From: Torpedo marmorata
Lineage: Eukaryota
Direction of reading: 5' to 3'
Assembly: GCA_977017645.1 (NCBI GenBank)
Contig: OZ360239.1
Coordinates: 71,548,001 to 71,612,000, forward strand
Length of the DNA stretch: 64,000 nucleotides
The notes beneath the pieces are model-generated. The model made no database searches. It was not told the origin of the DNA and worked only from the letters and a program-made list of their open reading frames with translations. How positions within the stretch are numbered: position 1 is the stretch's first letter; each line of letters starts with the position of its first letter. Position numbers and translations under genes: made by a program. Shown one piece after another: positions 4,136 through 62,110 of this stretch.

Positions 4136-4784
4136 TCAAAGAAATAGCACGATGTTAGGACACATGGGAGCTTTCCAGAATACAGTGAGGATAGCGAAAG
4201 GCAATCCATCTGGGAGTTGAGATGGGACAGGGGGATGCAGAGAGTACCAGAGCCAGAAGATCAGAGGCCACCTTTGGTGTGTGGAACTGGAGTGAGATTG
4301 GATGCCACAGGGCAGTAGATGGCTAGGAATGAGGATGGGTAGAAGTTAGATCAATGACACAGGATGCACAGGTTTTGTATAATTGATGGTGGGTAAGTGG
4401 TGAAGCATTGGAGTGGTCACACCTCAAGAAGACCAAAGCAAGGTTACGATGACACTGTCCAGATGACCCCATTGTTGAATTCCACTCACGGTTTTTGAAT
4501 ACATAGGATTCTGGTTGCTGCTGGTTTCAAACTTCTTGAGGAAAAAATTTGACTTTGGTCACTACTGTTAAACTCGAGTGAGTATCGAGTGTAGTCACTT
4601 CTGCACAATTGGTGACAACCAGTAGCAACCAAACAGAAATATCTCTTTCATGCCTGACCCTGTCACATGTTACTCGTGGATTTAGTAGGACAGCCACCTG
4701 CCAAACAGAGTAACTAAACGTTTCCTTCATATTCCTTCACAAACACTATTGTTTCATGTGAGATGGCCTTCAAGATAGTAATAA

Positions 4785-4915
4785 AAACACACTGTAAATT
4801 CTGGAGGAACTCAGCCAGTCTCGCAGCGCCAACAGGAGGTAAAGATATATTACCGATGTTTCATGCCTGAGCCCTTCTTCAAGGTATAAGCAAAAAGCAG
4901 ACAAGCATATCAATA
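4785..4915 (-). mobile_element. Penelope-like pLTR fragment
   Basis: CTGGAGGAACTCAGC...GATGTTTCATGCCTGAGCCCTTCTTCAAGG is the reverse complement of the pLTR/hammerhead segment at 5760-5870. Confidence 0.65.
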
Positions 4916-5109
4916 AAGACTGAGAGAGAAAGGTGTAAATTTAACACCAATGGTTCCAAAAACTGTAAATAAATTAGCTGTGAGTCTAACCCGAATGTTT
5001 AGATTGTGTTTAAGATTCTGAAATGCATGCTTGTACTTCATTTTTACATGATAATTGCATTGAAATATTGTCAATGTAGGAAATCAACAGAGCAAGTGTG
5101 GACAAGAAG

Positions 5110-5317: not shown

Positions 5318-5870
5318 CCTTCGCTGAGCACTATTGCTCCGTTCGCATCAGTCACTGGGACCTCCCAGTGGCCATCCATTTCAATTCTGCATCCCACTCC
5401 CATACTCACATGTCTGTCTATGGCCTCATGTACTATCCCACCAAGACCACCCGTAAATTATAGGAACAACACCTGATTTTCCATCTGGGCACTTTCCAAC
5501 CGGATGCCATTAACATTAACTTCTCCGGTTTCTGCTAACCAACTCTCCATTCTCCCACCCTTCCCTTCCCCCTGTCTTTTTTCCCTCAGCTCTCCACCCC
5601 CTTCCCTCTCTATTTACCCAGCCATCCCTCCTCCCCCTGCTTGCTGCTGTGCCCTCCCTCCCTTCTCCATCTATTTCCTGCTGCCTTTGGGACAGTGCTC
5701 CTCCCCCCACCCCTCCCCCCTTACCTTTTTGTTCGGACGCCTGCCGACATTTTTCCATACCTTTGATGAAGGGCTCAAACCTGAAATGTCAGTTATATAT
5801 CCTTATCTTTACTATATAAAGTAATGTACACTGTTTGACCTTCTGAGTTTCCCCAGCATTGTGTTTTTAC
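5318..5870 (+). mobile_element. Penelope-like retroelement 3' end: GIY-YIG C-terminal remnant plus pLTR
   Basis: Reads FAEHYCSVRISHWDLPVAIHFNSASHSHTHMSVYGL...RKL*EQHLIFHLGTFQPDAINI, the typical PLE endonuclease C-terminus (LPVAxHFN...EQxLIFxLGTLxPxGxN). It is followed by a pyrimidine-rich tract and a TTGATGAAGGG...GAAA motif at about 5763-5790. Confidence 0.85.
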
Positions 5871-5989: not shown

Positions 5990-6175
5990 AACAGGAAAGT
6001 CTGCAGACGCTGGGGTTGAGTGCAATACACAAACGTGCTGGAGAAACTCAGCAGGTCACGCAGCAACCATGGGAAGTAATGTACACCTGAGGAAGGGCCC
6101 AGACCCGAAACATTGGTTACCCTTTACTTCCTATGGATGCTGTATGGCCTGCTGAGTTTCTCCAGCACTTTCATG
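5990..6175. mobile_element. Palindromic non-autonomous Penelope-derived element
   Basis: GTGCTGGAGAAACTCAGCAGG... and ...CCTGCTGAGTTTCTCCAGCAC inverted arms surround CTGAGGAAGGGCCCAGACCCGAAAC. Confidence 0.75.
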
Positions 6176-6642: not shown

Positions 6643-9600
6643 TGTGGTAAACCACTGTATGTGTGTTGTGGGCTAGGGATAGGTTTGGACATGCCCTGCT
6701 GACTGTCCCGGTGACTCCTCCCACAATCCCCTTGAATAAAGGCCATTGTGCCACAACTCCTCCCCCAGTCCGGGACAGATCAGCAGCTCGAATGTAGCTC
6801 CATTCTATAACCAATAAAAGCCTTTCAGTTCATATACAACTTCCAGTCTTTTGGGAGTCATTGATAGGTGTATCAATTTTATTGGTTATACTGTCAAATG
6901 GAGAGCGTCCTGAGACCGGACAAGCTGGACATCGATCCGCTGGCACCAGACGCCAGTAACGCTTTCGAACTCTGGCTAACCTGTTTCGAGTCGTTTCTAA
7001 GGACGATCAAAGTGGAAGACGAAGACGGAAAACGCATGGTCCTCATCTCTAGGGTAAGCCCCCGAGTTTACTCGACGATCCGAGATTTTCAGACTTACGA
7101 GGATGCCATGGATGCCTTAAAACGGCTGTATATAATGCCTGTGAACTCAGTATACGCGAGGCACAGGCTAACGACGCGGCAGCAGCGGCCCGGGGAGTCT
7201 ATCACAGAATTCGTACGGGACATACAGTCACTCGTGCGGGAGTGCGACTGCAGGGCGCTGACGGCGGAGCAACATGCAGAGCTGTTGGGGAGAGACACTT
7301 TCGTCACAGGGATCAGGTCAGTATATGTGCACCAGCGACTGCTAGAGCATGCTGACCTGACCTTTCATTCTGCCGTTCAAATGACCCATACGCTGGAGGC
7401 CGTGCTGCGGAACTCGGATGCTATGCAAGCGCGAGACCTCCAGCAGGCCCCGTGGATGGCACTGACCCCCCACCCTGCCAGCGATCCGACTACCGCCGCC
7501 ATCAGCCGCGACCCGACTGCCGCCGCCACCAGACGCGACCCGACTACCGTCGCCATCAGCCGCGAGCCCAAGACACGACCTGCTCCAGCTGTGGTAAGAA
7601 AGGCCACTTCGCAAAGGCCTGCCGCAAAAAGCCGCGAGCGGGTCCGAGCAGCGCCGCGTGCGAGATTCAGGGGCGGCCATCTTACTTTTCGTCACTTCCT
7701 GCGTCCTACCCACCCGCGGTTGCCAACACGTGCGAAGAATGGAGGCGGCCATCTTGGACCTCGGCATTTCCGGCGCCACCATCTTACTGCTCCGATGCCA
7801 ACACGTGCGATCCACGGAGGCGGCCATCTTCTTCAACTCCGACGTCGGATCAAGATTACGAACCTACACTGGCGTCGGTGACGCTCGACCAGAGTGCACC
7901 CCATCAACTATCACGATCGATGATGGACATCCTGGTTGGAGGACACAGAACAAACTGCCTGTTCGACACAGGCAGTACAGAGAGTTTCATTCACCCCGAC
8001 ACGGTACTGCGATGTGGCCTCTCAACATTGCCGGTAAGCCAAAGGGTTGCCATGGCTTCCGGGTCGCACACAACAGACATCCGGGGGGGTTGTGTAGCGA
8101 CGATAGTGGTACAGGGCACGGAATATCGGGACTTCTTACTACTAGTCATGCCTCGACTGTGTGCGCCTGTACTACTGGGACTCGATTTCCAGAGTCACCT
8201 ACAGAGTGTTACCATGCAATATGACGGGCCCCTTCCAGCGATTACCGTTGGTAACCACCAGTACTTAAAAAATACATCCCAGACTACCTGCGGCCTCTCC
8301 ACCCTCAAGATTCCGCCCCCATCGCTATTCACTAACCTGACCCCTGACTGTAAACCTGTGGCGACCAAGAGCAGGCGATACAGCGCAGGGGACAGGACAT
8401 TTATCAAGTCGGAGGTGAGGCGATTGCTTGGGGAAGGGATCATTGAACCAAGCACAAGTCCCTGGAGGGCCCAGGTAGTCGTAGTAAAGAATGGGAGCAA
8501 AAATAGGATGGTGGTGGACTATAGTCAGACGATTAACAGGTTCACGCAGATGGACGCATACCCCCTTCCACGCATTGCGGATATGGTGAACCAGATAGCG
8601 CAATACAAGCTATTTTCTACCATAGACGTCAAATCGGCCTACCACCAGCTCCCTATTTGCCGGGAGGACCGCGCTTACACTGCCTTCGAGGCGGACGGCA
8701 GACTTTATCATTTCCTGCGCGTCCCCTTTGGCGTCACTAATGGGGTGTCCGTCTTCCAGAGGGAGATGGACAGGATAGTGGACCAGTTCGATCTCAAAGC
8801 CACTTTCCCGTACCTGGACGACATCACTATCTGTGATCACGATCGCCAGGACCACGATAACAACCTCCGGAAGTTCCTCCAGGCGGCCAAAGCACTTAAC
8901 CTCACGTACAATAAGGATAAGTGCGTGTTCGGGACCACCCGACTCGCCATCCTGGGGTGTGTCGTGGAGAACGGGGTCATCGGCCCCGACCCCGACCGCA
9001 TGCGCCCCCTGTTGGAACTACCGCTTCCCCACACCCTCAAAGCCCTCAAAAGGTGCTTGGGCTTCTTTTCGTACTACGCCCAGTGGGTCCCCAATTACGC
9101 AGATAAGGCCCGACCCCTAGTCAAGTCCACCACGTTTCCCCTTGCAATGGAGGCACGTGAGGCTTTCAGCCTCATAAAAGGGGACATTGCTAGAGCTGCA
9201 ATGCATGCGGTGGACGAGTCCACTCCCTTCCAGGTAGAGAGTGACGCGTCCGACTTCGCACTGGCTGCTACCCTCAACCAGGCGGGAAGACCGGTGGTGT
9301 TCTTCTCCCGTACCCTTCAAGGCCCCGAAATTCGGCACTCCGCGGTGGAGAAAGAGGCCCAGGCCATAGTGGAAGCTATTCGGCACTGGAGGCACTATCT
9401 CGCCGGCAAAAGGTTTACTCTGCTGACTGACCAACGCTCAGTAGCGTTTATGTTTAACAATCAGCAGCGGGGTAAAATCAAAAACGATAAAATCATGAGG
9501 TGGAGAATCGAACTCTCCACCTACAACTACGATATACTGTACCGGCCCGGGAAGCTCAATGAGCCCTCCGATGCTCTATCCCGAGGGACGTGCGCTAGCG

Positions 9601-11027
9601 CACAGATCGACCGGCTGTACGACCTCCACTGCGACCTCTGCCACCCCGGAGTTACCAGGCTGTTCCATTTTGTGAAGGCCCGTAACCTACCCTACTCCCT
9701 AGAGGAGGTCAGGACAATGACCAGCAGCTGACAGGTCTGCACGGAGTGCAAACCGCAATTCTATCGCCCTGACAAGGCACAGCTGGTCAAGGCCACCCGC
9801 CCCTTCGAGCGACTCAGCGTCGACTTCAAGGGTTCCCTCCCCTCCACCGACCGCAACGTGTACTTTCTCAATGTGATTGATGAGTACTCGCGGTTCCCCT
9901 TTGCTATTCCCTGCCCCGATACCTCGGCCATATCCGTCATTAAAGCTCTTCGCAAGATATTTACCCTATTTGGTTTCCCCAGCTATATACATAGCGACTG
10001 GGGATCCGCGTTCATGAGCGGAGCTGCGACAATGCCTGCTGGCCAGGGGTATTGCCCTAGCAGGACCACGGCCTACAATCCACGGGGTAACGGACAAGTG
10101 GAAAGAGAGAACGCCACTGTCTGGAAGGCCACGCTCTTAGCCCTCAAGTCCAAGGGATTGCCAGTCTCCCGCTGGCAAGAAGTCCTCCCCGAAGCCCTCC
10201 ACTCTATTCGGTCCCTGTTGTGTACTTCCACTAACGCGACTCCTCACGAAAAACTCTTTTCCTTCCCTAGGAAGTCGACCACTGGGACCACCCTACCTGC
10301 ATGGCTGACGTCCCCAGGACCGGTGCTGCTCCGCAAGCACCTTAGGAGTAATAAATATGCACCGATGGTCGAAAGGGTTCAGTTAGCCCATGCCAACCCC
10401 CAGTACGCCTACGTGGTCTTCCCTGATGGGCGGGAAGACACCGTCTCCATACGGGACCTAGCGCCCGCAGGAGCGCCGGAAACCACCCTCGAACACCCCC
10501 TTGTTACAATTACCCACCCCAACACGACACCGCACCCTCCAACAATTTCACTGTTACCGGATGTTCCGGTACCACAAATCAGACAGGAGACGGCTCTACC
10601 ACCTCCCCCATCACCACAGGTACTATCGCCCACCCCATCACCACAGGTACTGCGCAGATCGCAACGTCGTACTTGACCACCTGATCGGCTTGATCTGTAA
10701 CTGTAATATATCTTTGTACATAGTTCATATTTCTGTAACGTATTATTAGTGTTCACTTCACCCCGCTGGACTCTTTTTAAAAAGGAGGGGTGAATGTGGT
10801 AAACCACTGTATGTGTGTTGTGGGCTAGGGATAGGTTTGGACATGCCCTGCTGACTGTCCCGGTGACTCCTCCCACAATCCCCTTGAATAAAGGCCATTG
10901 TGCCACAACTCCTTCCTCAGTCCGGGACAGATCAGCAGCTTGAATGTAGCTCCATTCTATAACCAATAAAAGCCTTTCAGTTCATATACAACTTCCAGTC
11001 TTTTGGGAGTCATTGATAGGTGTATCA
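6643..11027 (+). mobile_element. Ty3/Gypsy LTR retrotransposon, complete structure, recent insertion, inactivated
   Basis: 233-bp LTRs (6643-6875 and 10795-11027) run TG...CA with 3 substitutions by eye. PPT AAAAAGGAGGGG lies at about 10779-10790. The element sits in a poly-C tract (CCCC TSD). Domain order is gag-PR-RT-RH-IN. Confidence 0.97.
6898..10700 (+). pseudogene. Disrupted gag-pol polyprotein of the Gypsy element
   Basis: ATG at 6898 (MESVLRPDKLDIDP); CCHC knuckle CSSCGKKGHFAKAC; protease LFDTGS; RT YLDD; RNase H ESDASDF...EKEAQA; integrase H-H-C-C and D..HSD..E. Lesions: frameshift at about 7570, TGA at 9729-9731 in the zinc finger, a short frame disruption at about 10020-10060 and TGA at 10674-10676. 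Confidence 0.92.
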
Positions 11028-24114: not shown

Positions 24115-24930
24115 TTTCCAGTTTTGGTCACTGTGCTTTCGGAAAGATGCCGTCAAACTGGGGAGGGTGCAGAGAAGGTTAACAAAGATGCCTTGATGAA
24201 AGGCTCAGGCCCGAAACGTTGGTTACGTATCTTTATCTTTGCTGTATAAACTACGCTGTTTGACCTGCTGAGTTCCTCCAGCATTGTATTTTTACTTTTA
24301 TTACAAGGACTTGGGGGCCTGAGCTATAGGGAGAGGATGAGCAGGCTAGGGCTTTATTCTTTGGAGTGCAGAAGGGTGAGGGGTGATCTTATACAGGTGT
24401 ACAAAATCATGAGAGGAATAAATCGGGTGAACGCACTGAAGCTTTTGCTCAGAGTTGGGTAATCGATAACCAGAGGACAGGTTTAAGCTGAGGGGGGGGG
24501 GGGGGGTGAGATTTAACAGAAATCTGAGGGGTAACTTTTTTTACACTGAGGCTGGTGGGTGTATGGAACAAGTTGCCAGAGAAGGTGGTTGAGGCAGGTA
24601 CTATTGGAACGTTTAAGAAATATTTGAATGGATACATGGATAGAATGGGTTTAGACCAGTGGTTCTCAACCTTTTTCTTTCCACTCACATACCACCTTAA
24701 GTAATCCCTTACTAACCACAGAGCACCTGTAGCATAGGATGCCATAGGTGCTCTGTGGTTAGTAAGGGATTACATAAGGCGGTATGTGAGTGGAAAGAAA
24801 AAGGTTGAGAACCACTGGTTTAGAGGGTCATGGGTCAAACACAGGCAAGTGGGACTAGTGTGGGTGGGACATTTTGATCAGCATGGGCGTTGGGCCGAAG
24901 GGCATGTTTCCACGCTGTATGACACTATGT
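24115..24930 (+). mobile_element. CR1 3' fragment with two nested insertions (Penelope pLTR at about 24192-24300; hAT MITE at 24657-24817)
   Basis: QFWSLCFRKDAVKLGRVQRRLTKM, then GLGGLSYRERMSRLGLYSLECRRVRGDLIQVYKIMRG, resuming across the insertions. Confidence 0.85.
24657..24817. mobile_element. Palindromic hAT (Charlie/Buster-type) MITE
   Basis: TIR CAGTGGTTCTCAACC...GGTTGAGAACCACTG. The whole 161 bp is a near-perfect hairpin. The 8-bp TSD is GTTTAGAC/GTTTAGAG. Confidence 0.93.
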
Positions 24931-26784: not shown

Positions 26785-27565
26785 CTACTGAACTCATCAT
26801 CACATTGAGGAAGCTCTTCTTCAACTACATTTTCTTTTCTTCATATCAAACTGCAGCTATGGTAACTCAGATGGGCCCAAGCCACGCCTGCCTATCTCTG
26901 AGTTACATGGAACATTTGTTGCTTCAGTCCTATCCGTGCCCCCTCCCTGAACTCTTTTACCAGTAGATCATCAACAACTGCATTGGTGCTGCTTCTTGCA
27001 CTCATACAGGACTTGAAAATTTCATTGCAATACACAAACATGCTGGAGAAACTTAGCAGGTCACGCACCATCCATAGGAAGTAAATGGAAACCAACATTT
27101 TGGGCCTGGGCCCTTCGTCAGGTATACGACAGGAAAATGTCATTGCTTCTTTTTGCCAATTTCCACCTGTTCTCACCTTCACATCGTCCATGGCACTTCC
27201 CTTTCCTTTTTGGAATCCTCTCCCTCCATCTCGGGGAACAAGCCAGTGACAAACATCCATTCCAAGCCTCCCACAGGTATCCTGACTATACTTATACTTC
27301 CTCCCAGTTGCCTACTGTGAGGTGTATATTCCATTCTTCCAGTTCCTCCTTCATTTCATTTACTCCAGTGATGATATTTTCCTCAGCATGCCTCTGAGAT
27401 GTCTTTCTCCTTGAACTGAGGCTTCTTCTCTACCCTTGACGACAGACCCATCTTTTTCCCCACACGGTGGTTCCCACCACCTTCCCTGTTTAGACTTCCC
27501 CTGGTCCTCATTTTCCATCCTACTGGCCTTTGCATTCAACAGATTATCTTTTGCCATTTCCATCT
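26785..27565 (+). mobile_element. Degraded Penelope-like RT fragment interrupted by an inverted pLTR (about 27025-27130)
   Basis: AMVTQMGPSHACLSLSYMEHLLLQSYP...ELFYQ..NCIGAASC resembles the PLE RT AMGTxMGPSYACLFxGYxE...LFxRYIDDCIG. Confidence 0.7.
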
Positions 27566-28072
27566 TTGATTTTCATTTATAATTTGGGTCAGATAAATTG
27601 ACAAATTTTAATTCAAATAATTAAGTCCATCGTGTTTCGAACTCAGACAGATTTCCAAAGCAAAGACCTAAGCAAGATAAAAAGTTGTATAAGGTGATGC
27701 CAGTCAAAAGTACCAGCTGGGAATTGAAAATGGGTGCCACCTATTGGATGGCAGCCAGAACTGCATTGTGACAAGACATTGCTGACATAACAATGTCCAT
27801 GACAATTGTTCTGGCTGTGAATATTAACTTAAATGCAGGACAACAATACTTCCAAAAGGCAGCCCATTGCCATCTTCTCAGGGGTAATTAGGAAGCCACA
27901 CCCACATCCTACAATAAGGAATAAAAAAAGTGCTGATAAAAGGAAGTCTGTGAGCAGAAAACGCCCATTTTACAAAAGATTTGTGTAAAATCAGTTGATA
28001 AATATAGGGTATTAGAAGCTGGAAACTGATTCCATCGATATTGAATATGAACACTATTAACCCCATTGTACG

Positions 28073-28809
28073 GAAGTAAAACACGAAAATCTGTAGACAC
28101 TGTGGTTGAAGTAAAAAACACAAATGCTGGAGAAACTCAGCAGGTCAAACAGTGTCCTTTATGTAGCAAAGGTAGAAATACATAACCGACGTTTCGGGCT
28201 TGAGCCCTTCATCAAAGTATGAGAAAATGCCGGCAGGCATCCGAACAAAAGAGTGAGGGGGGAAGGGGGGGGGGTTGGCAAAGGCAGGAGATGATAGGTG
28301 GAGAAAGGAGGGAGGGTGCCTGCCGACATTTTCTCATACTTTGATGAAGGGCTCAAGCCCGAAACGTCGGTTATGTATTTCTACCTTTGCTACATAAAAG
28401 ACACTGTTTGACCTGCTGAGTTTCTCCAGCATTTGTGTTTTTTAACCCCATTGTACGCCAGGTGGTACAACTACCCTCTGCCCGTTCTAAACGTTTGTGG
28501 AAGTAATTTCCAACCTCCCCCTCTTTGCTGCTGTCCCCTCCCTCCTTTCTCCACCTATCATCTCCTGCCTTTGTCACCACCACCCCCCCCTTCTCCCCGT
28601 CACTCTTTTGTTCGGACGCCTGCCGGCATTTTCTCATACTTTGATAAAGGGCTCAAGCCCGAAACGTCAGTTATGTATTTCTACCTTTGCTACATAAAAC
28701 ACACTGTTTGACCTGCTGAGTTTCTCCAGCATGTGTGTTTTTTAACCCCATTGTACGCCAGGTGGTACAACTACCCTCTGCCCGTTCTAAACGTTTGTGG
28801 AAGTAATTT
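28073..28809. mobile_element. Young Penelope-like pLTR cluster: one inverted and two tandem copies with duplicated host flank
   Basis: 28115-28236 is the reverse complement of 28318-28441. A second direct copy lies at 28510-28741. TTAACCCCATTGTACG occurs at 28057, 28442 and 28742. Confidence 0.88.
28335..28375 (+). ncRNA. Minimal type-I hammerhead ribozyme motif (PLE-associated)
   Basis: CATACT-TTGATGA-A-GGGC(TCAA)GCCC-GAAA-CGTC-GGTTATG shows core boxes, a 4-bp helix II, a palindromic ACGT helix III, a GUC triplet and a flanking helix I. C3 is U. Activity is untested. Confidence 0.7.
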
Positions 28810-30599
28810 TCCACGTTGACTCGGCTGGAATAAAATTGGTGACCACATTAAAATGGGCTGGAAGTGTAAACTAACTCAAGATTTTAATAACATATAATAA
28901 CCTCAATGCACGATGAAAAAATAAACGGTGTAAAAGAACGTTTTGAAATAAATAACAGGTTCTACACAACGCCCACTAAACGCGCTGAAAACCATTGTTA
29001 AAACTGCACTACACATCACAGGTCACGGGGACACTTGGTAATTGTTTGCACATTGCTAACAATACGTGCCCTTTGAAGTTTGAACAGCGGTAAGAATTCA
29101 ATTGCGGATAAATTCTGCACCAGATAAATACCAAGCCGCATCGCGTCCTTCAATCACACATCAAATATTCGAGTTGACTAAAAATAGTCAGCCTCTTGTT
29201 TATTTAACGCGATTCCAAATAATCCACTAATTGTTTTCGAGTTTCGGTGCGTTCGTCATCGTGTGATGTTGACCATGACTTTGAATGATTTTGATTTGGA
29301 AAGATTTTAAGTGTTAATATTTTCTGGCCCGATCATATTTAAAAGTTTATTTTATTTTATATTTAAGTTTCCCCGCCCCGGGATGTCTGGTAGCAGTACA
29401 GTAGGAGCCGTAAAATTGTAACTATTTTACTTTCGCTCTTAGCTCTGGGGAACAACACGACTTCGAATTCTTGACCATTTTCTGTAAATTTCAATTCCTT
29501 TTATGAGAACTCGAGGTTGCTTTTTTTTTCCCCCATTTTAACATTTTAGGTGAATGTGTCAAATTTCTCTGGAGCCTTTTCATGTATTTTAGGTATGTTT
29601 GTGTGGATGTTTGAAATTGGACACTTTAAAGTTTAAATAAACTTCTCATTACCGCCCCCTTACTGTCTAAACTCGCCCAGAATGAATCTAATCTCTGCAC
29701 CGAGCTGTGATTATTACTGTGAAATACGTTTGTGCAAGTCCAGAATATTGGAAATTTCCCCGCCCACGAAAAAAAGCATATGCACAAGTTTGAAGGTCAT
29801 CTCTTATTTTGTTCTCTGAAATCACATTAAAATAATCCGAGCTATTTTCACTCTCCAGATCGAGCATAAAAAATGTGAAATTAAATAACCAGTTGTGGTG
29901 GAGGCTTGAGACAAAATGCATGATTGCGAAACCTTTCCGTTCATATCGTATACCTGTATTGAAATAACACTGCTGCCGCGGTACAGACTGCAACATCAAC
30001 GAGCTGTTTACGCTGCAGACACCGAAATGTTTTACTGCAGTTATTGTACAACGCCGCAAATACTGAGTGTGTACGCAGTTCATACTGAAGGAATATCATC
30101 CTTACACTTCCAACTCCTTGTTTTCTGAAACTTGCCGTAGCCGCAGAAAAAAAGGGAAAATAATTAATTATTAACCGAGTTCTGCATCGAATCAGGGTTA
30201 CGCAAATCCAATGTGCGCAGCAGACTTTCAGAGTCGTGAATATTAAAAAGCAGGCGGGGAGACCAACTGCCAAAGCAATGGGCAAAGTGCAGCGGATTTT
30301 GGTTGAGATCTGAGACTTAACTTTCCAGGTTAACTTTTTCAACCCCGGACCCACGAAATATAACCCGTGCACTATCAGAATCCCGTGCACTAACATCATT
30401 CGGTAACATCGTGTGGAATATGGTGATCCTTTCATCGGTACCGTCCGGAGCAATGCATCCCAGCGCTGCCCTGCACCTTGCAAGGCATACGTCCCAGCTC
30501 TGGCATCGTCCGGGGCGATACCATTCAATATATATACCTGAGCATTGGCACCACCCCGAACTTTAATGTTATGCACGCAGAGTAAAAGATGTCAAAGCA

Positions 30600-31000: not shown

Positions 31001-31349
31001 CAGAGCCTTGGTTGTATTTCTAGCTTCATTGATAGCCGCAAGCATTGCCATTCCAAGCGCGTTTAGGCTGGAAAGACATAGTTACAAATCACTTTGCAGA
31101 AAAAAAACAATAGGACTTCCAGGAATTTGGTGCAGTTTTGGGAGGAGGTATCAAAACTTGGAGGGAGGGGCAATAATTAGGTGCAGACTGTGGCCACAAT
31201 AGACCTGCATGGGGGCAGAGAAATGAATTTCATATTGCACCATCTCTGCACCTTCCTATGAAATATTCTTAGAGCTGCTAGGACCTCGCACATTCATTCA
31301 ACCCAACTTTGGAGGAGAATGTAGACTTCAATCAATTGAGAAGGGCGAT

Positions 31350-31370
31350 ATGGAGACGGACTCAATCAAG
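31350..31370 (+). CDS. ARID5B: ARID5B-like coding exon 1 (METDSIK)
   Basis: ATG plus 21 nt, then AG|GTATT donor. It corresponds to human MEPNSLQ and joins exon 2 in phase 0. Confidence 0.85.
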
Positions 31371-31652
31371 GTATTAAACTGCTTTCTGCTATTATTCTCA
31401 CACTGTCCTCCAAACCCCTCCACCGACTACACTCTTACCTCTGCCTGACTTCAATTTACTTGCGAATAAGGCGTAAAGGTTTAAAAATAATTTTTTAAAA
31501 GCTGACCTAAATCTCATCAGAAATTGTTCCAAACATATTTTGATTGTTTTTTTTAAAGATAAAAAAAAATCCCTTCCTGTCAATTTCCCCTATGTTTCAA
31601 TTTTTAATATATATATTATAAACTGTGTTGTGTATGTTTTTCCCCCTCGCAG

Positions 31653-31907
31653 TGGGTTGGTTCTCCGTGCGGTTTACACGGAGCCTACATTTTCTACAAA
31701 GCTTTCAAATTCAGTCTTGAAGGCAGACCAAGAATCCTCTCCCTCGGAGACTTTTTCTTTGTAAGATGTAAGCCAGGAGCACCGATTTGCATAGCAGAAC
31801 TCCAGCTGTTGTGGGAAGAGAGAAGCAACAAGCAACTTTTGTCGAGTTCCAAACTCTACTTTCTCCCTGAAGATACACCCGAAGGGAGGTCGATCGGCCA
31901 CGGAGAG
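31653..31907 (+). CDS. ARID5B: ARID5B-like coding exon 2 (N-terminal BAH-like domain)
   Basis: TTTCCCCCTCGCAG acceptor and GAG|GTGATG donor; 255 nt. It reads WVGSPCGLHGAYIFYKAFKFSLEGRPRILSLGDFFFVRCKPGAPICIAELQLLWEERSNKQLLSSSKLYFLPEDTPEGRSIGHGE, closely matching ARID5B as I recall it. Confidence 0.95.
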
Positions 31908-34900
31908 GTGATGACCCCCCCCCCCCCAACTTTCTTGTTTGATTCATTTTTAATTGCCTCTGTGATATTTTGTGTCTCTGCCTTTGCAATATGAAATACG
32001 AGCGGTGCACTTAGTTGTTTATGTGAACTTTATAGTAAATGGGAATGTTTATAGAATCTGTTTGCATAGTGTAAAAGCAAAGGCGATGGATATTTGCACC
32101 CTCCCCCCGTAGTTCGGTTGGGTAACGTTAAGCTATTCCTCTTGGGCTGCGGAGAGGAGGGGGGGGGGGACTATGTGATTAAAAATATTTAGCATTGACT
32201 AAAGGGCGGAAATTACGAAACGGGATGAGATCAAAGCTATTCCATGAAGGCGTGTAACCGGGTGAAAAAAGGACAGGTAGACGAATGCAGCTCCCTGGTC
32301 TAGCTGTCTGTGCACAAGAGATGCGATGCGGCGAGTCCTTTTTTTTGATTGTCAGCATGTGACGTTTTTACAGTGTGTAGTGAAAACCGATTCTTTCCAT
32401 GTAAACATCCAAACAGCACATTCAGATGAGAGAGAGAGAAAAATATCTAGTGTGCCAAGGAAATTAGCCTCACACAATTTTCCATGCAATGACGCAAATC
32501 TTTAAATAACTTTTTTTATTCAAAAAACCGAAATCTGATTCAGTTACCAACCATATAAATACATTAGAAGGACAGAGGGAGACTGGATTTGTCTACGCGG
32601 CGTTTGTGCTCTGTAATTTAGTCGTGATGTGTGTGAAAATCAGTGATGAACAGTTACGCGTTGGAAGCGCTGGTTTAACGTGACGTGTAAATAGTCCGGC
32701 GTTTAAACTGCATTTTACAGTATCCCGATAGGGGCGAGAGCGAATAGACTGTAAACACTACAGACGACTAGTTGTGCTCCTGAAAACAGCTCTTGTCTGC
32801 ACGCCGGAGTTAATTGTGCATTCTGAAAGACTGGCGTGTCAAATTACCTTTTCATATCTTGCAACAGGTTTAGAAGTAGTTAATCCCTCCTATTGCTTTT
32901 TTCCCGAGCACACTGTCCAATCTAGTTGTGTTCGACCTGCCTATCTCACTGTTTCTCTTTCCAGATCGATAATTACTAAATTCATTGTTACGAGTTAACA
33001 AAAACACAATTGAAAACACTTAGTAACCTTTATCCAGAGTTCTATTACCTCTCCCCCTGTTTAAAATGTTCTGAGCAGTTGTCTCTCTTCTTCCCTTGTT
33101 ATTTGCTTTTAAAACTTAATAATTGACGCGGTTTAGTGATCTGGAAAAAAAAAATAAATAACGAAACAGATCCGTGGGGCTTCAGGCTCCATCCACCCCC
33201 TCCTCTAGTATACGTTAAGCAGCTGAAAACGATTAGCTTATTATGCAGGGTGGCAAATGCCACAATTTAATAGCATTTGTTTGCATATTCTGCGCTGAAT
33301 GAAGTAAAGTGGTGCATGGTTCTCTCAACACGAACCTGCTGGTTTATAATTATGTTTATTCAGCTAAATTGTAGGAAGGCGTATTGTGATTTTAAGTAGA
33401 CTGGAAACGATAGACAGCTAGTTTAACACGTATATGTGGTATTATACATAAATGTAGTGTTATTTTATATTGCGGTTAACAGGGTGCTGATCTGTTATTT
33501 CTGATATCGGAGTCGAGGACCAAAGTACTGTTGTTAATGATTAACTTCCAGTTAGTATCGCCCGGAAAACCTCAATATCATCTGTTGAGGTAACTGTGAG
33601 TTGCAAGTTTACGCTCACGGACAGGCTGAAATTATGCAAATACCTTGTGTTCTTCACAATAACACGGCGAGGGAAAGAACAGGTTGTAGTTTCCAGATGC
33701 CGCCTTACTTCACAGCAGCTGATGTCATTTCCCTTCTGGCCAGAGTTAGTCATTCATTAGCAGTAGTAACAGCAACAAGCGCGCACACACTGATCCTGAG
33801 CCTTGGCAAGGTGCCCAGAGAAACTTACACCAAGCTCCAGCGAGCTCAATACGAGACTATCATTAATATGTTAACGCAGTTGTCACATATTAATAGGTGT
33901 GTTGTGTACGTACGGTTCTTGTCAGAATTGATGGTCCCTGCCTATCTCGCATTGTATTCTTCTGTATATTACACCAGCTTTCAGCTGAGGGAATGGGAAT
34001 TGCAAGTTAATTGACCTATCATTTTGTATTAATTTCTATATTTAGAATCCCCCAGGAAGTCAATTATTTCTCGTTTTAAGAAATTTTCATTTCCAAAGTT
34101 GTCAGCTGCCAAAATGTTGTTGACTCAATAACATGAAATGGTGACCCATTTTCATCCAACATAAATAGATGGATTCCCATAAAAGGCTCAGGCAATATTG
34201 GAATGGTAATGAAATATGTGAATGCAGAAATGTGTCAATGGAAAAAGAGCTACCTATCTTGTGAAATTTATGAGGGACTGTCATACATTATATTGTATAC
34301 ACAAACTCAGTATGTGTATGCAGTAAAATGCCTACCATTTGATGGCATATGATGTATGTTGTACACTGTATATGCTTTGTATGTTGTGGTTTTTTTTGTG
34401 GTATACTTTCAGTAGTAAATGTAGAAACAAATTTGTATCTTAACATTTTAATTCTTTGTGGGTTTTTAACTTCGTTTATGGTTTCAAGCTACCCTGTAAA
34501 TCTGAGTTAAACTTGGGAGAAAATACCTATTGATGGCAAACAAACTAGACATTAGAATCCGATGAAACTTGCAACCATAATAAAATCTGTAACTACACGA
34601 ACACGAGATCTCACGAAGATGGCATGAGAAGTAAAAAAGTATGGTGAAGACATGAAATTTGGGAAATCGGTATATTTACTCAAAACTGAAGGGCAGAGAA
34701 TAAATATATTTCTTCACATGAGGATGATCTGGAATAAATGAACTGAAAAGGTGGAACAGAAGCTGATTAACTTTGACAAGGCAATTGGATGTATGCTTGG
34801 GGAAATAAAGGGGGATATTGCAAAAGAGAAGGCAATCTAAAACTAAATGGATAAGTAAGTGCTGGCACAGGCATTAGGGGATGAATGGACTCCTACACAG

Positions 34901-36224: not shown

Positions 36225-36368
36225 TAAAGATGAAAATGAAAATAAAACTGCAGATGCTGAAAATCTGAGATAAAAACAGAAAACGCCTGAAAAACTTGGC
36301 AGGACGTGCAGTAGCTGTGGAATGAGAAACAGTCAACGTTTGGAAGTCCAGACCCTTCATCAGGACTG
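36225..36368 (-). mobile_element. Penelope-like pLTR fragment
   Basis: The minus strand reads CCTGATGAAGGGTCTGGACTTCCAAACGTTGACTG...CAGATTTTCAGCATCTGCAG. Confidence 0.7.
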
Positions 36369-36562
36369 AGAAACCCATGAGCATGATGGAACATCTCCAT
36401 TTCGGCATGCATCAACTCATTTTGAACTCCTAGAACCCCTGCTTTGTGAAGCATTGCGCTGGAGGTTTAGAAAAGGCTGAAGTAAAAATCCTAAATCAAA
36501 AACACCAAGAACTGTTAGTACCAGGAACTCAGGATGGATAAGATTAATGAGGATAATTTTAT

Positions 36563-36889: not shown

Positions 36890-37645
36890 TTATAGATTTT
36901 TGGAGCACAGAAAAAGGCCCTTTGGCCCCATTTATCCATTCCAACCAAGTTGTCGACCTCAGCCGGAGACATACAGGAGACTACAGATGCTGGAATTTGG
37001 AGCAAGAAACAATTTGCTGGAGGAACTCAGTGGGTCAAGTAGCATCAGCGGGGGAAAAAGAATTGTCAGTGTTTTGTACTGATGAAGGGTTTCAACCAGA
37101 ATTGTTGACTATTCTTTCCCCCCCCCCCATTGATGCCTCTTGACCTGCTAAGTTCCTCCAGCAGATTGCTTGTGTGTATTTAAGCGTGTCCATTTGCCTT
37201 TGTTTTGTCTCTATCCCCCTATACTTTCCTATCAATGTTCCTGTCACAATGTCTTTTAAACGTAATTGTACTCAACTCCACCACTTCCTCTCGCAGCTCG
37301 TTCCACATACCTGCTGTCCTTTACATGGAAAAAGTTATCTCTTGGGTCTCTTAAATTTTTCCCCTCTCACCTCAAATCCATGATGCCTAATTTTAAATTC
37401 TCCCCAACTTCGGAGAAAAAGACTATGACTATTTATGTTGATCTGTACCCCTCATGATTTTGTATCCCTCCCAGTCTCCCAGGTCACCTCCCAGTCTCTT
37501 ACACTCCGTGGAAAAAAGTTCCATCTTATCCAGCCTCTCCATTTAACTCACAGCTGCCAGTGCTAGTAACATCCTTGTAAAACTTTTCTGCACCTTTTAC
37601 TGCATTTCTGTTAGCTGGGTGACCAGAAGTGCACACAATAGAACT
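36890..37645 (-). mobile_element. Degraded CR1 fragment with a nested palindromic Penelope-derived element (about 36970-37175)
   Basis: CR1 tail at 36890-36960 resumes at about 37180. The nested arms TTGCTGGAGGAACTCAG / CTAAGTTCCTCCAGCAG surround CTGATGAAGGG. Confidence 0.7.
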
Positions 37646-45890: not shown

Positions 45891-47629
45891 TTAAATTATT
45901 TACCATTATTTGTGAAAATAAAGAAAGATTTAGAAAACTGGAAAGACTTACCTATAACTTTAATGGGAAGAGTAAACTGTATTAAAATGAATGTTTTTCC
46001 AAGAATTCAATATCTTTTTCAATCAATTCCTTATGGAATTCCTCAAAAATTTTTTAAAGATTTAAATTCAATTATTAGAAAATTTTTATGGAAAGGAAAG
46101 CTAGCAAGAGTAGGTATGGAAAAATTAACTTGGAATTATGAAATGGGTGGTTTACAACTTCCTAATTTCCAAAATTATTATAAAGCAGCTCAATTAAAAT
46201 TTGTTAATGAATTTTTTGATTTATCTAAATCTTCTGCTTGGATTAAAATAGAATTAAATAATATAGGAGAAGATTCTAAAGAAGAAATTATTTACAAATG
46301 GGATTCTAAATTAATATCAACAAAAAAGAAAAATTCGCCTATTTTTAAACATTTGTTAGAAATATGGTATAAGACAGATAAGGAAATAGGAGCAAAAGGA
46401 TTGATTTCTTCAAGGATGCCTTTATATCAAAATAGACTTATTCCATTTACTGTTAATAATCAATTATTTAAAATTTGGTTTCAAAAAGGAATTAAGAAAA
46501 TTAATGATTGTTTTGAAGCGGGAAAATTTATTACCTTTCAAAGAATGAAAGATAAATTTAATATATTAGATAATACACTTTTTGCTTATTATCAAATTAG
46601 AGCTTTTTTGATTGAGAAGTTAGGTAATGCTTTGATTTTGCCAAGACAAAATGAATTAGAATTATTAGTTACTAATGGGGATGTTAATAAATTTATTTCT
46701 CAAATGTATAAATTGTTTCAGAGGAAAATGCCTAAAGTAGGATTGCATAAATCAAGATTAAAATGGGAATTGGATTTGAATGTAAGAATAGATGAAAACC
46801 ATTGGAAAGAATTATGTAAATTAAGTATGACGAAAATTATTAATGCTAGATATAGATTAGTTCAATATAATTTTTTTCATCAATTATATTTAACACCTAA
46901 AAAATTAAAGAAATTTAATCTGACATTATCAGGTTTATGTTTCAGATGTAATAAAGAAGAAGGATCTTTTGTACATTCTACATGGTTTTGTCCAAAAGTT
47001 TATGTGTTTTGGTTGAAAGTTAAAAGTTTTTTTAGATAAAGTATTTAAAATTACGTTTCCAATGGATCCTATGATATTTTTGTTCGGAGATATTAGAAAA
47101 TTTAGTATTAAGATGAAATTAAACATGTATCAAATAGAATTTTTGCGAATTGCTTTAGCTGTTTCAAAGAAATGCATTGCTATTACTTGGAAATCTGATT
47201 TAGATTTAGGATTAGAAAGATGGCATGCAGAACTTCATTCGTGTATACCACTTGAAAACATTACTTATAATTTACGTAATAAATATCATTTTTTCTTAAA
47301 AATTTGGAGCCCATATATGAGAGCTGTTGGTTTAAGAATTTGAGGATCTCTGGGTATTGAGTCTACTGGCATACTTGACCTCCATAATAGAAGTAGTTTA
47401 GAAATTGGCATTCCCCTAACTTTGTTTCTCTTTTTCTTTCTTTTTCTTCTTTTTCTATTTTTACTTTTCTATTTTTATTTTATATTTTTATTAGATTAGT
47501 TGGGTTGGGAGGGTTGTGGAGGGGAGGGGGGGGTGAAAATGTATCAGATGTATTTTGATAATTTTGCTTTTTATACTATGTATTGTGTGATTTAAAAGTT
47601 TAAATAAAATATTTTAAAAATAAAAAAAA
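45891..47629 (+). mobile_element. 5'-truncated L1/Tx1-type LINE (ORF2 C-terminus, 3' UTR, poly-A)
   Basis: DLENWKDLPITLMGRVNCIKMNVFPRIQYLFQ, GGLQLPNFQNYYKA and the CCHC motif CFRCNKEEGSFVHSTWFCP. One frameshift in a T-run at about 47030. The 17-bp TSD AAGTAGGTTAGTGGTAA (45874-45890 / 47630-47646) is at a TTT|AA site. Confidence 0.95.
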
Positions 47630-50783: not shown

Positions 50784-51534
50784 CTCTACTCTTTCAATTC
50801 CTCTGATCGACTTTAGGCACCTTGATCAGACCACACCTGTATCTACAGTCCCAAGAGTAGATAAGAATGAAGTGTACTGAGATGGTTTCTGCCAAAATCT
50901 GCTTACAGAATCAGAGTAGTACAAAGGAAGGCGTTAATGTAATTGAAATATATATGTGATGTTCCAGCTCATTTGGTTTTGCACGCTGTGTGGGTGTGGA
51001 AAGTTGCTCCGAATAGCACGATTTAGTTGTCTGTATGAGGGCATCAAGTGGCTTCCACTTTCTGTCTGGTCTTCTTGAAGTTTATCTTTTGGGCAGGCAT
51101 CAAATTGTAGAGGGTGGGAGGTTGGTCATCTGTGTGTTCATGACCTTATTCCGTTCACCTGACAATCTTCCACTGCTGAACTGGTACACTGTTCAGGGAC
51201 ACAAGCAGGAGTCACAAGAAATCTGTCAACTTCTAAATGTAGTAAGGGCAAGGTGCACCCATTAGTTCCCTAAAGGGGCATTGGAGTACTAACTGTGTCA
51301 AAAGATCTTGATTCAATGGAGTCCACCTCCTCATTGGCAGTCCTGCATTCAGCTATCAAGATCCCATTCTGTGGAATACCTTCCTGAAAGGTCTCCCTTC
51401 AAATTCCTCCTTGGCACCCACCTTTTGACCACTCTTTGGGAGTTGAACAACAAAGTCAGTAGATGCTGGGGTCAAGTGCAATACGCAAATGTGGCAGAGA
51501 AACTCAGCAGGTCATGCAGCATCCATAGGAAATA

Positions 51535-52446
51535 TACCTCCCCAGGGCTGTGTGCTCAGTCCAATGCTGTTCACCCTGCTGACTCATGACTGTGCAGCAA
51601 AACACAGCTCCAATCACATCATAAAGTTTGCTGATGATACAACCGTGGTGGGCCTTATCAGTAAGAACGATGAGTCAGCATACAGAGATGAGGTGCAGTC
51701 GCTAATGGAATGGTGCGGAACCAACAACCTGCATCTGAATGTAAACAAAACAAAAGAGTTGGTTGTCGACTTCAGAAGGGCCCGGGGGGATCATTCTCCA
51801 TTGACCATGGACGGCTCTACCGTTGAGGTCGTAAAGAGTACCAAGTTTCTTGGAGTGCACTTGGCGGAGAGTCTCAGCTGGTCCCTAAACACCAGTTCCA
51901 TAGTCAAGAAAGCCCAGCAGCGTCTTTACTTCCTGCGAAGACTGAGGAAAGTTCATTTCCCACCCCCTATCCTTACTACATTCTACAGGGGATGTATTGA
52001 GAGTATTCTGAGCAATTGCATCACCGCTTGGTTTGGAAACTGTACCACCTCGGACCGAAATATCCTGCAGAGGATAGTGAGGTCAGCGGAGAAAATTATT
52101 GGAGTCTCTCTCCCCACCATGACAGACATCTACAACACACGATGCATGAGGAAGGCAAATAACATTGTGAAGGACTTCTCACACCCCTTTGGTAAACTGT
52201 TTTCCCCTTTGCCATCTGGAAGGAGGTACCGAAGCACTCGGGCTCGCACGTCCAGACTGTGCAACAGTTTTTTCCTCCAAGCCATCAGGCTCCTCAATTC
52301 CTAGATATATATGTGTATTAGCATGCTATCGTTTTTTCTATTGTATTATGATATTTATGTACATCTGCCCATGGTCCTGGAGAAACGCTATCTCGTCTTA
52401 CTGTGTATATGGTAATGAACGACAAATAAAGGTGACTTGACTTGAC
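51535..52446 (+). mobile_element. Rex1/Babar LINE 3' portion (RT), open frame, inserted into a palindromic Penelope-derived element
   Basis: PQGCVLSPMLFTLLT...KFADDT...LNVNKTKELVVDFR...KKAQQRLYFLRRL...NSFFLQAIRLLNS*, with a (GACTT)n tail. The host element arms are at about 51455-51534 and 52447-52530. Confidence 0.92.
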
Positions 52447-53604
52447 CTGATGAAGGACCCAGGCCTGAAACGTTGGTTACCCTTTACTTTGTATGGATAC
52501 TGCATGCCTGCTGAGTTTGTGTATTGATTTTGACCAATTTTTAAAATCCTTTTTACTATCCCCTTTGAAAGAGCAACATGCAAACCCACTAAAAACATTA
52601 AAAAATGAAAGCTCTTGTAACGTTGCCTTTGATGTGACACTGACATGGAAAGAAATGTCCAAAGGCTTTTAAAGTGCATTGCATAATATGAATGTTGCTC
52701 AATATTTGTGCATCATAAAGTCTGACAAAGTATGTCCTCAGAATAGATTAAAAAATTAGAATTACAATACTGACTTATTTTAAGCATGAATACTGTGATA
52801 TTTGTGGGTATTTGAGAATATTTTGCATGACTGTTCTGAAACGAGCAGTCTTGTATCTTAATTGAATCATATTAAAGAGGGTTAGATTATGTTGTCATTT
52901 TTAGAACAGATTGAAAACTGCTGTGGAAAAAGGCCTGGACTAATTATGTGGTATCTGTACTTTTTACTTTGCAAGCTGAAACAGGAAACCACTAAATCTT
53001 CCAGTCCTCTGATTCAAAAGTAATTTGGAAATGAAACCTATTATTCTTTTCTGTTTTGAAGTTGCCATCTCATTTTACAAGGAAATAATGTGATTGGGCC
53101 ATGCATTTTTTTCTAGTTGACTAGTTAAGGTCTAGGGATGCAATCAATTTTATTTTGGTTGGAAACTTAATTTTCTTTGTCCAGAATAGGTTCTAGTCAC
53201 CTTGGCTCTTTCGGTCTAAATTTCTGGCTTTTTTGTTTCATCGTCCAGTGATTGATGGCACTTGTGTGGGTATCCTATGTGCTTTGCAGCAAGCTTGTTG
53301 TTGAACAGATTGGAATGAAGAGTGATTAATCTGCAACTCTGTTTGGCACGGTGCCCTTTTGGCTTTTACTGTTTTGCAAGGGTACTCTTTGGTGTGTAGG
53401 TTTTATTGGTTGTATATACACTAGAACCCAGAGTTTAAAAACAAAAAAGAATTTTTAAAAAATCCTAGAAAGAAAGAAAGGAGGAAAAAGGTAAATTACA
53501 GGGTGCAGTGGAAAGTTGTGATTATACTTGGAGCAATTTTGAATACATGTGGGATTGGATTAAATGTTCAGAAACTATAGTTAAAAGAATCACAATTTAT
53601 GAAA

Positions 53605-53930
53605 CAGACAAAAGATTGCAGATACTGGAACCTGGAGCAAAAAAGACAATCTGCTAGGGGAACTCGGCAAGTCGAGCTGGATCAGTGGGAGAAGAATGGT
53701 CGATGTTTCGGGTCTGAACACTTCATCCCGGAACAACGATCCAACCTTGGTGAAGGGTTCAGACACTTCATCCCGGAACAACGATCCAACCTTGGTGAAG
53801 GGTTCAGACACTTCATCCCGGAACAACGATCCAACCTTGGTGAAGGGTTCAGACACGAAACATTGACCATACTTTCACTCCCACTCATACTGTTCAACCC
53901 GCTGAGTTTCTCCAGCAGATTGTTTGCTTT
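53605..53930. mobile_element. Palindromic Penelope-derived element with an internal 45-bp x3 tandem repeat (53719-53853)
   Basis: Arms ACAATCTGCTAGGGGAACTCGGC / GCTGAGTTTCTCCAGCAGATTGT. Three copies of CACTTCATCCCGGAACAACGATCCAACCTTGGTGAAGGGTTCAGA. Confidence 0.85.
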
Positions 53931-54219
53931 TTAAACAATAGATTTATAATGTGGAAACTGGCATTTGGGGCAACCAGTTCATGCTCTACTCGTGCCATTT
54001 CCCCCTCAATTAGATTTCATTTTCTATTCTCCCAAAGTATCCCGAGACTTGCATGAAAACCATTTACATGATTTACACCATTGATAGTGTTCCACTTTCT
54101 CATCACTTTCTGGTTTAAAGTAGTTTTTTAAAAACCCGAATCCAATTTGATATCTTGGTGACTATTCAGAATTGGCCTCTGGTTCTGCTGTTCCCTGCAA
54201 GTGGGAGCAGTCTATTTTA

Positions 54220-54974: not shown

Positions 54975-55312
54975 ATTTAAAGAGCTATCACTTCTCAGCT
55001 TTTTTTTCTCATGTGCCCTCCCACTCTATCCACCCATGACCTCTTGCCTGTGGCCCTGTGCTCCTCCCCCTGTCCCTCTCCCCCCCCCCCCCCCTCCCTC
55101 CCCCAACCATTTTATTCAGGTGCCTGCCTGCTTTCTGCTCATTCCTTAATGAAGGGCTCACCATATCACAAGATTTTCCACCTCTTCTCTGTCGTGCCGA
55201 AACGTCGGTTATGTATCTTTATCTTTGCTACATAAAGAACGCTACGTGACTTCCTGAGTTTCTCCAGCATTTTTGTGTAAACTACAATCACAGCGTTTGC
55301 AGATTTTCATGT
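54975..55312 (+). mobile_element. Penelope-like pLTR with interrupted hammerhead core
   Basis: Homologous to 28510-28741. TTAATGAAGGGCTCA and GCCGAAACGTCGG are separated by about 35 extra nt. Confidence 0.75.
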
Positions 55313-61619: not shown

Positions 61620-62110
61620 GTTCATTACCACAATCAGTGAGGATTGGGAAGAACATCTCCACAATCTCAATCAGTACCGGAGCACCTCAGGGCTATGTTC
61701 TTAGCCCCCTGCTCTACTCGCTTTACACCATCATTGCTCGGTACGACAACAACACCATCTACAAATTCGCTGATGATACCATGGTAGTGAGTTGTATAAA
61801 AAGGGGCAATGTGTCAACATACAGGAGGAAGATTGAAAGCTTGGCTGAATGGTGCACTAACAACAACCTCACACTCAATGTCACCAAAACCAAGGAGCTG
61901 ATTGTTGACTTCAGGCAGGGAAAAACAGATGTGTACGATCCAGTGATCATTGGGGGATCAGAGGTGGAGAGTGTGAGCAAATTTAAGTTCTTGGGAGTCA
62001 CTATCTCGGAGGATCTTTCCTGGACCCAACACACTAATGGGATCGTGAAGAAAGCACATCAGCGCCTCTACTTCCTCAGGAGTTTGCGGAGGTTTGGTAT
62101 GACACCAGAT
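61620..62110 (+). mobile_element. Rex1/Babar LINE RT fragment
   Basis: GAPQGYVLSPLLYSLYT...YKFADDT...KTKELIVDFR...KKAHQRLYFLRSLRRFGM. Confidence 0.9.

Follow-up and report, generated by a model that had tools for sequence, protein, structure and literature searches.

Minimal hammerhead motifs with a U3·G8 core in the pLTRs of an abundant Penelope-like element of Torpedo marmorata

The locus, its surroundings and the hammerhead motifs of the window

In the window (the whole 64,000-nucleotide stretch of Torpedo marmorata DNA analysed here), the forward strand carries at 31348-31910 the first two coding exons of a gene that is ARID5B-like and has a BAH-like domain, and the hammerhead locus described below lies ~2.6 kb upstream of the first of them. 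The name is presumptive and follows the N-terminus of human ARID5B together with BAH-like atlas matches; the protein gave no match in the PDB. Contigs of a possibly-RNA run cover its second exon as well as 29934-30502. Several other repeats occupy the window. A Gypsy-like LTR retrotransposon with gag and pol runs from 6868 to 10676 (+) in open stretches of 337, 791 and 314 aa, a second LTR retrotransposon at 55809-59567 (+) is broken into several frames, and fragments of LINE ORF2, belonging to two or more types, lie at 45891-47343 (+), 51447-52304 (+) and 61559-62143 (+). A near-perfect inverted repeat of ~140 bp at 24666-24808 gave weak scores to several miRNA models and is likely a repeat inversion.

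Hammerhead-like cores had been noted at 11 places through the window, and all 11 were found at or within a few bases of these, with position 3 at 4882(-), 5763, 6087, 24193, 27121(-), 28215(-), 28341, 28641, 36363(-), 37079 and 52447 (Table 1). Additional decayed copies near 53729(-), 53837 and 55146 had escaped the earlier list. A profile search of the window returned 21 matches including fragments, a count that is circular because the profile was built from the 11 window copies. Strict cores with a helix II of at least 3 bp numbered five, against a mean of 0.4 (maximum 2) in 50 shuffles, and two remained when CGT was required after GAAA, against none in the shuffles. The full family core is intact only at 28215(-) and 28341(+) (2 of 11); the copy at 28641 carries A1.1 as well as A8, and damage is seen in all of the remaining eight, which have lost the GAAA box, pairs of helix II, the palindrome of helix III or a helix I arm. 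The remnant of a GIY-YIG domain noticed beside the copy at 5763 proved to be genuine, with 5320-5532 matching the C-terminus of a genomic Penelope-like element (PLE) protein at 75% identity over 71 aa (E 2e-19). A further PLE 3' end lies at 55086-55291 (+), where loop II of the hammerhead is split by an insertion of ~40 bp.

Table 1. Coordinates of the best hammerhead motif, of the insertion that contains it and of the other motif copies in the window
Feature	Position	Strand	Remarks
Minimal type-I hammerhead, U3·G8 core	28335..28375	+	predicted cut after C17 = 28368
Helix I 5' arm	28335-28340	+	best copy
U3-U4-G5-A6-U7-G8-A9	28341-28347	+	best copy
Extra A after A9	28348	+	best copy
Helix II GGGC/GCCC, 4 bp	28349-28360	+	best copy
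G12-A13-A14-A15.1	28361-28364	+	best copy
Palindromic ACGU, zero-loop helix III	28364-28367	+	best copy
C17	28368	+	best copy
Helix I 3' arm	28369-28375	+	best copy
16-bp target-site duplication (TSD)	28057..28072 and 28742..28757	+	left and right copies enclose the locus
Inverted 5'-truncated PLE end with ~36-bp tail	28074..28316	-	hammerhead 28181-28221, U3 at 28215
Direct copy 1, 5'-truncated PLE 3' end (pLTR)	28314..28444	+	ends at short 3' terminus, tailless
68-bp duplicate of target-site host DNA	28442..28509	+	same as 28742-28809; between direct copies
Direct copy 2 of PLE 3' end	28509..28744	+	hammerhead 28635-28675, G8A (U3-A8) and G1.1A
Older subfamily copy (U3, A7)	4784..4933	-	helices II and III decayed
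Older PLE 3' end	5319..5868	+	broken endonuclease C-terminus 5320-5532, pyrimidine-rich UTR, decayed hammerhead at 5763
Short head-to-head inverted pair of pLTR ends	6016..6172		decayed C3-type core at 6087(+)
Solo pLTR end	24188..24293	+	U3·G8 core, G10.1 changed, GUU triplet
C3-type copy, G12 lost	27021..27141	-	PLE RT remnant adjoins at 26820-27026
Old C3-type copy without GAAA box	36274..36371	-	antisense in ARID5B-like intron
Inverted pair	37007..37173		C3-type core 37079(+) with GAAU, sense in ARID5B-like intron
C3-type copy	52439..52520	+	core boxes intact, helix II 3/4 pairs, helix I 5' arm truncated; sense in ARID5B-like intron
Inverted pair of decayed pLTR ends	53599..53934		short tandem repeats at junction; absent from the earlier list

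The best copy had been described as combining a GGGC/GCCC helix II, a palindromic ACGT, a GUC triplet and U in place of C3, and these parts do assemble into a complete minimal type-I fold with a U3·G8 core. Helix I is CAUACU/GGU(U)AUG (6 bp plus a bulge). The UGANGA and GAAA boxes are both present, with the U at position 3 departing from the CUGANGA consensus. As in minimal hammerheads, helix II opens with G10.1-C11.1 and an extra base follows A9, and the 15.1-16.1 segment is palindromic, without a loop 3, and followed by an NUH triplet (ACGU and GUC here; GUU in older subfamilies). No Rfam family reached its gathering score anywhere in the window, and between 24000 and 29000 no hammerhead model was matched at E ≤ 10. 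The GAAA box and the cleavage site can base-pair with the stretch that precedes helix I (28322-28371, +), a possible 'off' fold of the monomer as modelled, with a z of -1.0 that is not significant. Introns are frequent in PLE pLTRs, and the bases just 3' of the cleavage site (28369-28376) resemble a 5' splice site in the U3 subfamilies, not in the older GAC-type C3 ones.

The motif stands within a compound insertion bounded by a TSD. Direct copy 1 is 97.6% identical to a genomic element. Two direct copies at 28341 and 28641 had been taken as a natural tandem; the pair is present, but 68 bp of target DNA separate its members, so that it does not represent a natural pLTR tandem. The G8A and G1.1A changes in the second hammerhead are likely chance events after insertion. 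Folding of a read-through RNA gave -455 kcal/mol with the inverted copy paired to copy 2, against -230 when the active dimer was forced; without the inverted copy the values were -85 and -68 kcal/mol, respectively, and nearest-neighbour energies undervalue hammerhead tertiary structure. The adjacent inverted copy is thus predicted by this modelling to lock direct copy 2 in a duplex. Cutting at 28341 is predicted to be negligible, because the inverted copy and copy 2 would pair with one another and copy 1 would be left as a lone monomer in a non-catalytic fold. The locus is almost surely a dead insertion. Direct and inverted arrangements that capture DNA have been described for rotifer Penelope elements (PMC3846280).

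The Penelope-like element and the U3·G8 state of its family

The motifs are pLTR hammerheads of a young Penelope-like element encoding reverse transcriptase (RT) and a GIY-YIG endonuclease. DNA upstream of copies of a 28-mer taken from the motif encodes both domains: RVT_1 was matched at E 1.2e-7, above cutoff in one of two proteins, and GIY-YIG was weak and below cutoff in both, and the motif LIY-CxxC-YIG, with cysteines between GIY and YIG, was read directly. The proposed origin of the motifs in Penelope pLTRs was borne out by seven of nine long stretches, in which each pLTR carries one motif and the two are 3.7-4.4 kb apart. The full-length order is pLTR(hammerhead), tail, ATG, RT, endonuclease, UTR, pLTR(hammerhead); at 7 of 21 ORF-start loci, a hammerhead lies ~185 bp upstream of the ORF start and is followed by tail sequence and the ATG. 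None of the nine long copies has a single open frame from ATG to stop, so no master element is among these nine, and one long element has a 5' pLTR without a hammerhead. Inverted ends, tandem ends and TSDs occur in the family, and pLTRs, partial tandems, an inverted 5' copy and an optional tail, the hallmarks of endonuclease-bearing (EN+) PLEs, were all found. The RT-EN linker, CX4CxxC (CARRRCKTC), fits the CX2-5CxxC pattern of Neptune, and on this one motif the element appears Neptune-like; the CX2-5CxxC linker is common to Neptune and Nematis (PMC8557442). The closest named relatives of the protein are shark and ray proteins, those of Chiloscyllium, Hypanus, Rhincodon and Mobula, at 67-75% identity.

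Deletion of the hammerhead between short ACG repeats was seen in at least three independent contexts, one of them the long element's 5' pLTR. A hammerhead-less subfamily spreading by retrotransposition was considered and rejected: 28 of 30 examined copies (of 60 matches) share flanks and represent one insertion duplicated inside a unit of ~8.5 kb, and two are independent. Two distant loci (L028 and L029) have an identical inverted-pair junction with a short foreign spacer, and this small inverted unit may itself have been copied.

In the 6.22-Gb genome, 54,943 exact matches to this 28-mer were counted, and none to its reversed control. With the helix II spacing fixed, genome-wide cores number 92,379 for U3·G8, 1,982 for C3-G8, 1,755 for U3-A8 and 287 for C3·A8, which makes U3·G8 96% of cores with this spacing (92,379/96,403). 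Since U3·G8 cores so far outnumber C3-G8 ones, U3 is a family state and not decay: it belongs to the whole dominant family and is no blemish of the best copy. Within the young family, C3 is found in 208 of the 54,943 copies. In 120 evenly chosen 10-kb stretches, the window-derived profile found 163 related segments (reversed control 0), that is ~136 per Mb or about one per 7.4 kb, from which ~0.85 million can be extrapolated, many of them coreless. The core, helix II and the palindrome were all kept in 8 of 42 distinct scoreable copies from the first 80 stretches, all with U3. The very large genomic reservoir that had been anticipated is therefore real by number (92,379 cores and 54,943 28-mers), but as a reservoir of working ribozymes it is not supported. 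In the youngest subfamily, the closing 2.1:1.1 pair is now U·G.

Inserted copies decay neutrally. Among them, G5A was counted 495 times and G8A 618 times, each ~1%, against ~55,000 intact copies, and since the two changes are alike in frequency the U3-A8 combination at 28641 is most likely due to chance. U3-A8 as a selected repair was rejected on the same counts and also since A8 is rarer with U3 (1.9%) than with C3 (12.6%, a value mostly due to CpG decay). An apparent 3:8 covariation was likewise discarded as an artefact of loci having been chosen by those patterns. Between subfamilies, N7 is U, A, C or G, and loop II and H17 vary, while the core boxes are constant. Among 177 distinct copies, helix I switches from C-G to U-A at 2.2:1.2 and from A-U to G-C at 2.3:1.3. 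Paired fractions were 0.83 versus 0.75 shuffled and 0.75 versus 0.66 shuffled, values reached in 0 of 500 shuffles; this covariation amounts to ~1-2 events between related subfamilies, and off-register column pairs give similar mutual information. Across 39 young alignments, non-CpG changes stood at 3/287 in the core versus 125/4138 in the flanks, a difference that is confounded by subfamily-diagnostic sites and carries no weight as a sign of selection on copies. The subfamily pattern fits a constrained hammerhead fold, with modest support.

Insertion ends, proposed mechanism and alternative readings

Among 32 young copies in 1.2 Mb, 3' ends fell at +100-109 (14 copies) and +139-143 (16 copies) relative to U3, and two such 3' termini ~36 nt apart are the signature of the tail. 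The 5' ends were scored in 30 of these copies, two at stretch edges being left out. None of these 30 unbiased copies started at +24 to +32, around G1.1, and 29 span the cut site. The cDNA was therefore made from RNA that was uncut or re-joined at the 3' hammerhead; 'uncut' and 'cut and re-ligated' carry the same expectation for the lack of copies starting at the cut. Among truncations up to 12 nt after GAAA, ~7 of the first 100 of 905 matches, judged by eye, begin at G1.1, with no peak there. Ends are enriched around the motif, with 6 of 30 within -15 to +15 and 11 of 30 within -43 to +12; the numbers are small and several of these 5' ends are inversion junctions. A set of 83 matches truncated exactly at U3 was discounted, as the search pattern was flawed at one position and many of them share flanks. 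The repeat is deeply covered by contigs of one possibly-RNA run, from which strand, ends and RNA nature cannot be read.

We favour, at a probability of about 85%, the reading that these motifs are pLTR hammerheads of an RT plus GIY-YIG PLE family that spread as 5'-truncated ends, likely inert once inserted, given a core change that is predicted to reduce cutting. In such a scheme, the element protein would nick AT-rich DNA, and reverse transcription would start inside the RNA at either of two sites downstream of the hammerhead, giving the optional tail. Copying would then proceed through the hammerhead, which requires a template uncut or re-joined at that point. Within the master RNA, the motif would likely be active solely as a slow dimer in which ACGU joins two copies, probably aided by protein, and U3·G8 would likely slow dimer cutting further. 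Selection would act on a few master elements and not on inserted copies. That U3·G8 lowers activity is likely by analogy with a type III hammerhead, from which the penalty is taken: in a full mutational scan of that ribozyme, every single substitution within the CUGA region resulted in low activity (PMC9901934). The U3-A8 combination is already known as an active covariant (PMC3088659), and it is discussed in the text of PMC4209133. Minimal hammerhead monomers did not cut in that study, and dimers cut weakly.

The role of the motif in master elements can be read in other ways. U3·G8 might be an efficient, protein-assisted ribozyme, with pLTR copies dimerising and the RNA of the ~3.9 kb unit being cut and circularised to template more-than-unit cDNA. 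Upstream of full-length elements there is indeed 269-1207 nt (counted from U3) of a truncated unit, the more-than-unit shape that the circle model predicts (PMC4209133), but the same shape can arise from template jumping or from read-through of tandem loci. Divergence between pLTRs averages 3.6% within an element and 5.1% between elements, with overlapping ranges (1.3-6.9% versus 1.4-7.5%) that do not separate a circular from a linear template. The core has been kept through several subfamilies, and one long element's 5' pLTR without a hammerhead counts against a role in circles. In Anolis, a PLE hammerhead cuts once PLE protein is added, yet hammerhead mutants left in vitro insertion unchanged and no RNA-seq reads ended at the cut (PMC11167929). 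On this balance we regard the circle-forming ribozyme as doubtful. It is also conceivable, if improbable, that the motif is a catalytic vestige that ceased cutting after C3 became U and was kept as a promoter, an RNA 5' end or a protein-binding hairpin. The predominance of U3·G8 (96% of cores), the U·G closing pair at 2.1:1.1 in the youngest subfamily, the lack of any sign of a spreading U3-A8 repair and the clustering of 5' ends around the motif would all suit a vestige. Against it, N7, loop II and H17 vary just where hammerheads tolerate change, U3 subfamilies included, and a U3·G8 family in Saccoglossus (PMC4209133, Fig. S3) and the citation of U3 variants as natural (PMC7151607) both suggest a tolerated variant.

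Two further alternatives concern inserted copies and are far less probable. The cutting of host transcripts by some of them, for instance the ARID5B-like pre-mRNA, with regulation of host genes, would draw on sheer number (one related segment per ~7.4 kb). The original prediction had pointed to copies at 37079 and 52447 within that pre-mRNA, and both do lie in sense in an intron; their action on the transcript is not supported, as they are degenerate. The former has GAAU for GAAA and no palindrome, and the latter keeps its core but has lost the helix I 5' arm, its nearest same-sense neighbour, at 53837, having a broken core. With neutral decay, the failure of monomers of this class to cut and the weak cutting of dimers (PMC4209133), and cutting by one of nine Xenopus dimer elements (Li et al. 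2026 preprint), host-transcript cutting is very improbable. Hardly any weight can be given to the proposal that the 28341/28641 pair is a non-LTR retrozyme dimer making a small circular RNA. Its 300-bp spacing fits retrozyme monomers of 170-400 nt (PMC7229834), but 68 bp of the unit are local target DNA, its two copies are unequally truncated at the 5' end, it sits inside a TSD-bounded inverted structure and its hammerhead is minimal and not canonical; with the inverted copy removed, the forced dimer is still 17 kcal/mol less favourable. Non-LTR retrozymes are tandem hammerhead units of a non-coding family; here a target-DNA spacer and a coding family were found.

In a more far-reaching reading, which we regard as less likely than not, the most prolific young retroelement of this genome, with more than 90,000 cores, would have run through several successive subfamilies on a U3·G8 core that mutagenesis of other hammerheads predicts to be crippled, with all other catalytic positions kept, either as a selected slow or protein-gated switch or as an RNA start and packaging signal. 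In the switch version, a slow or protein-gated U3·G8 would let the template survive reverse transcription. Either version, if true, would bear on what PLE hammerheads are for. In work so far, these ribozymes have proved weak in vitro; one study found them protein-assisted and dispensable for insertion, and some successful clades lack them. The Torpedo family, in which ~10^5 copies are young, C3-G8 and U3·G8 subfamilies both occur naturally and the 5' and 3' ends can be mapped, offers a direct test of whether cutting matters for retrotransposition.

Comparison with known systems

Minimal hammerheads in PLEs, their abundance as solo copies and their opposite-strand pairs have been described since 2014 (PMC4209133), and the present family belongs to that kind. 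Among the papers listed, a literature search found no dedicated study of shark or elasmobranch hammerheads and no paper on U3G8, with subscription journals and Repbase outside its scope; one searched supplement file of PMC4209133 has no entry for shark, skate, Callorhinchus or Leucoraja, and the Li et al. 2026 preprint includes one chondrichthyan. The Torpedo motif shares with the minimal hammerheads of Cervera and de la Peña (2014, PMC4209133) the type I order, the lack of a helix III loop, the palindromic 15.2-16.2, the extra base between 9 and 10.1, the G10.1-C11.1 pair and the NUH triplet, as well as the presence of a motif in each pLTR, mostly as solo truncated copies, and the opposite-strand pairs. 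A similar GGGC helix II is found in Acropora Neptune (PMC4209133). The Torpedo motif differs from the minimal hammerheads of that study by its 4-bp helix II and its 6-bp bulged helix I, and by U3·G8 in place of the CUGANGA consensus, a state represented there by one family, Saccoglossus 1 (Fig. S3). The copy number is ~10 times the highest vertebrate count of that study (9,000, in Xenopus).

Like the Neptune-clade EN+ PLEs (Craig et al. 2021, PMC8557442; Arkhipova et al. 2013, PMC3846280), the Torpedo element has a single ORF with RT followed by GIY-YIG and a CX2-5CxxC linker, and forms partial tandems, an adjacent inverted 5'-truncated copy, an optional tail of 30-40 bp and TSDs, with unrelated DNA between pLTRs. 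Animal non-LTR retrozymes (Cervera and de la Peña 2020, PMC7229834; Li et al. 2026) resemble the present family in their type I hammerhead, their origin from PLE pLTRs and, at one locus, the ~300-bp spacing; in contrast to them (PMC7229834), there is no true tandem unit here, the motif is minimal and not canonical, and the copies are ends of a coding element. With Poseidon_Ac of Anolis (Frangieh et al. 2024, PMC11167929), in which reverse transcription starts internally at two sites and the hammerhead cut only with protein, the Torpedo family has in common two 3' termini that define a tail, an AT-rich target and genomic copies whose RNA template was uncut at the hammerhead. Poseidon_Ac has a C3-G8 core and an ORF that starts inside helix II, whereas the Torpedo family combines a U3·G8 core with an ATG placed 178 nt downstream of U3.
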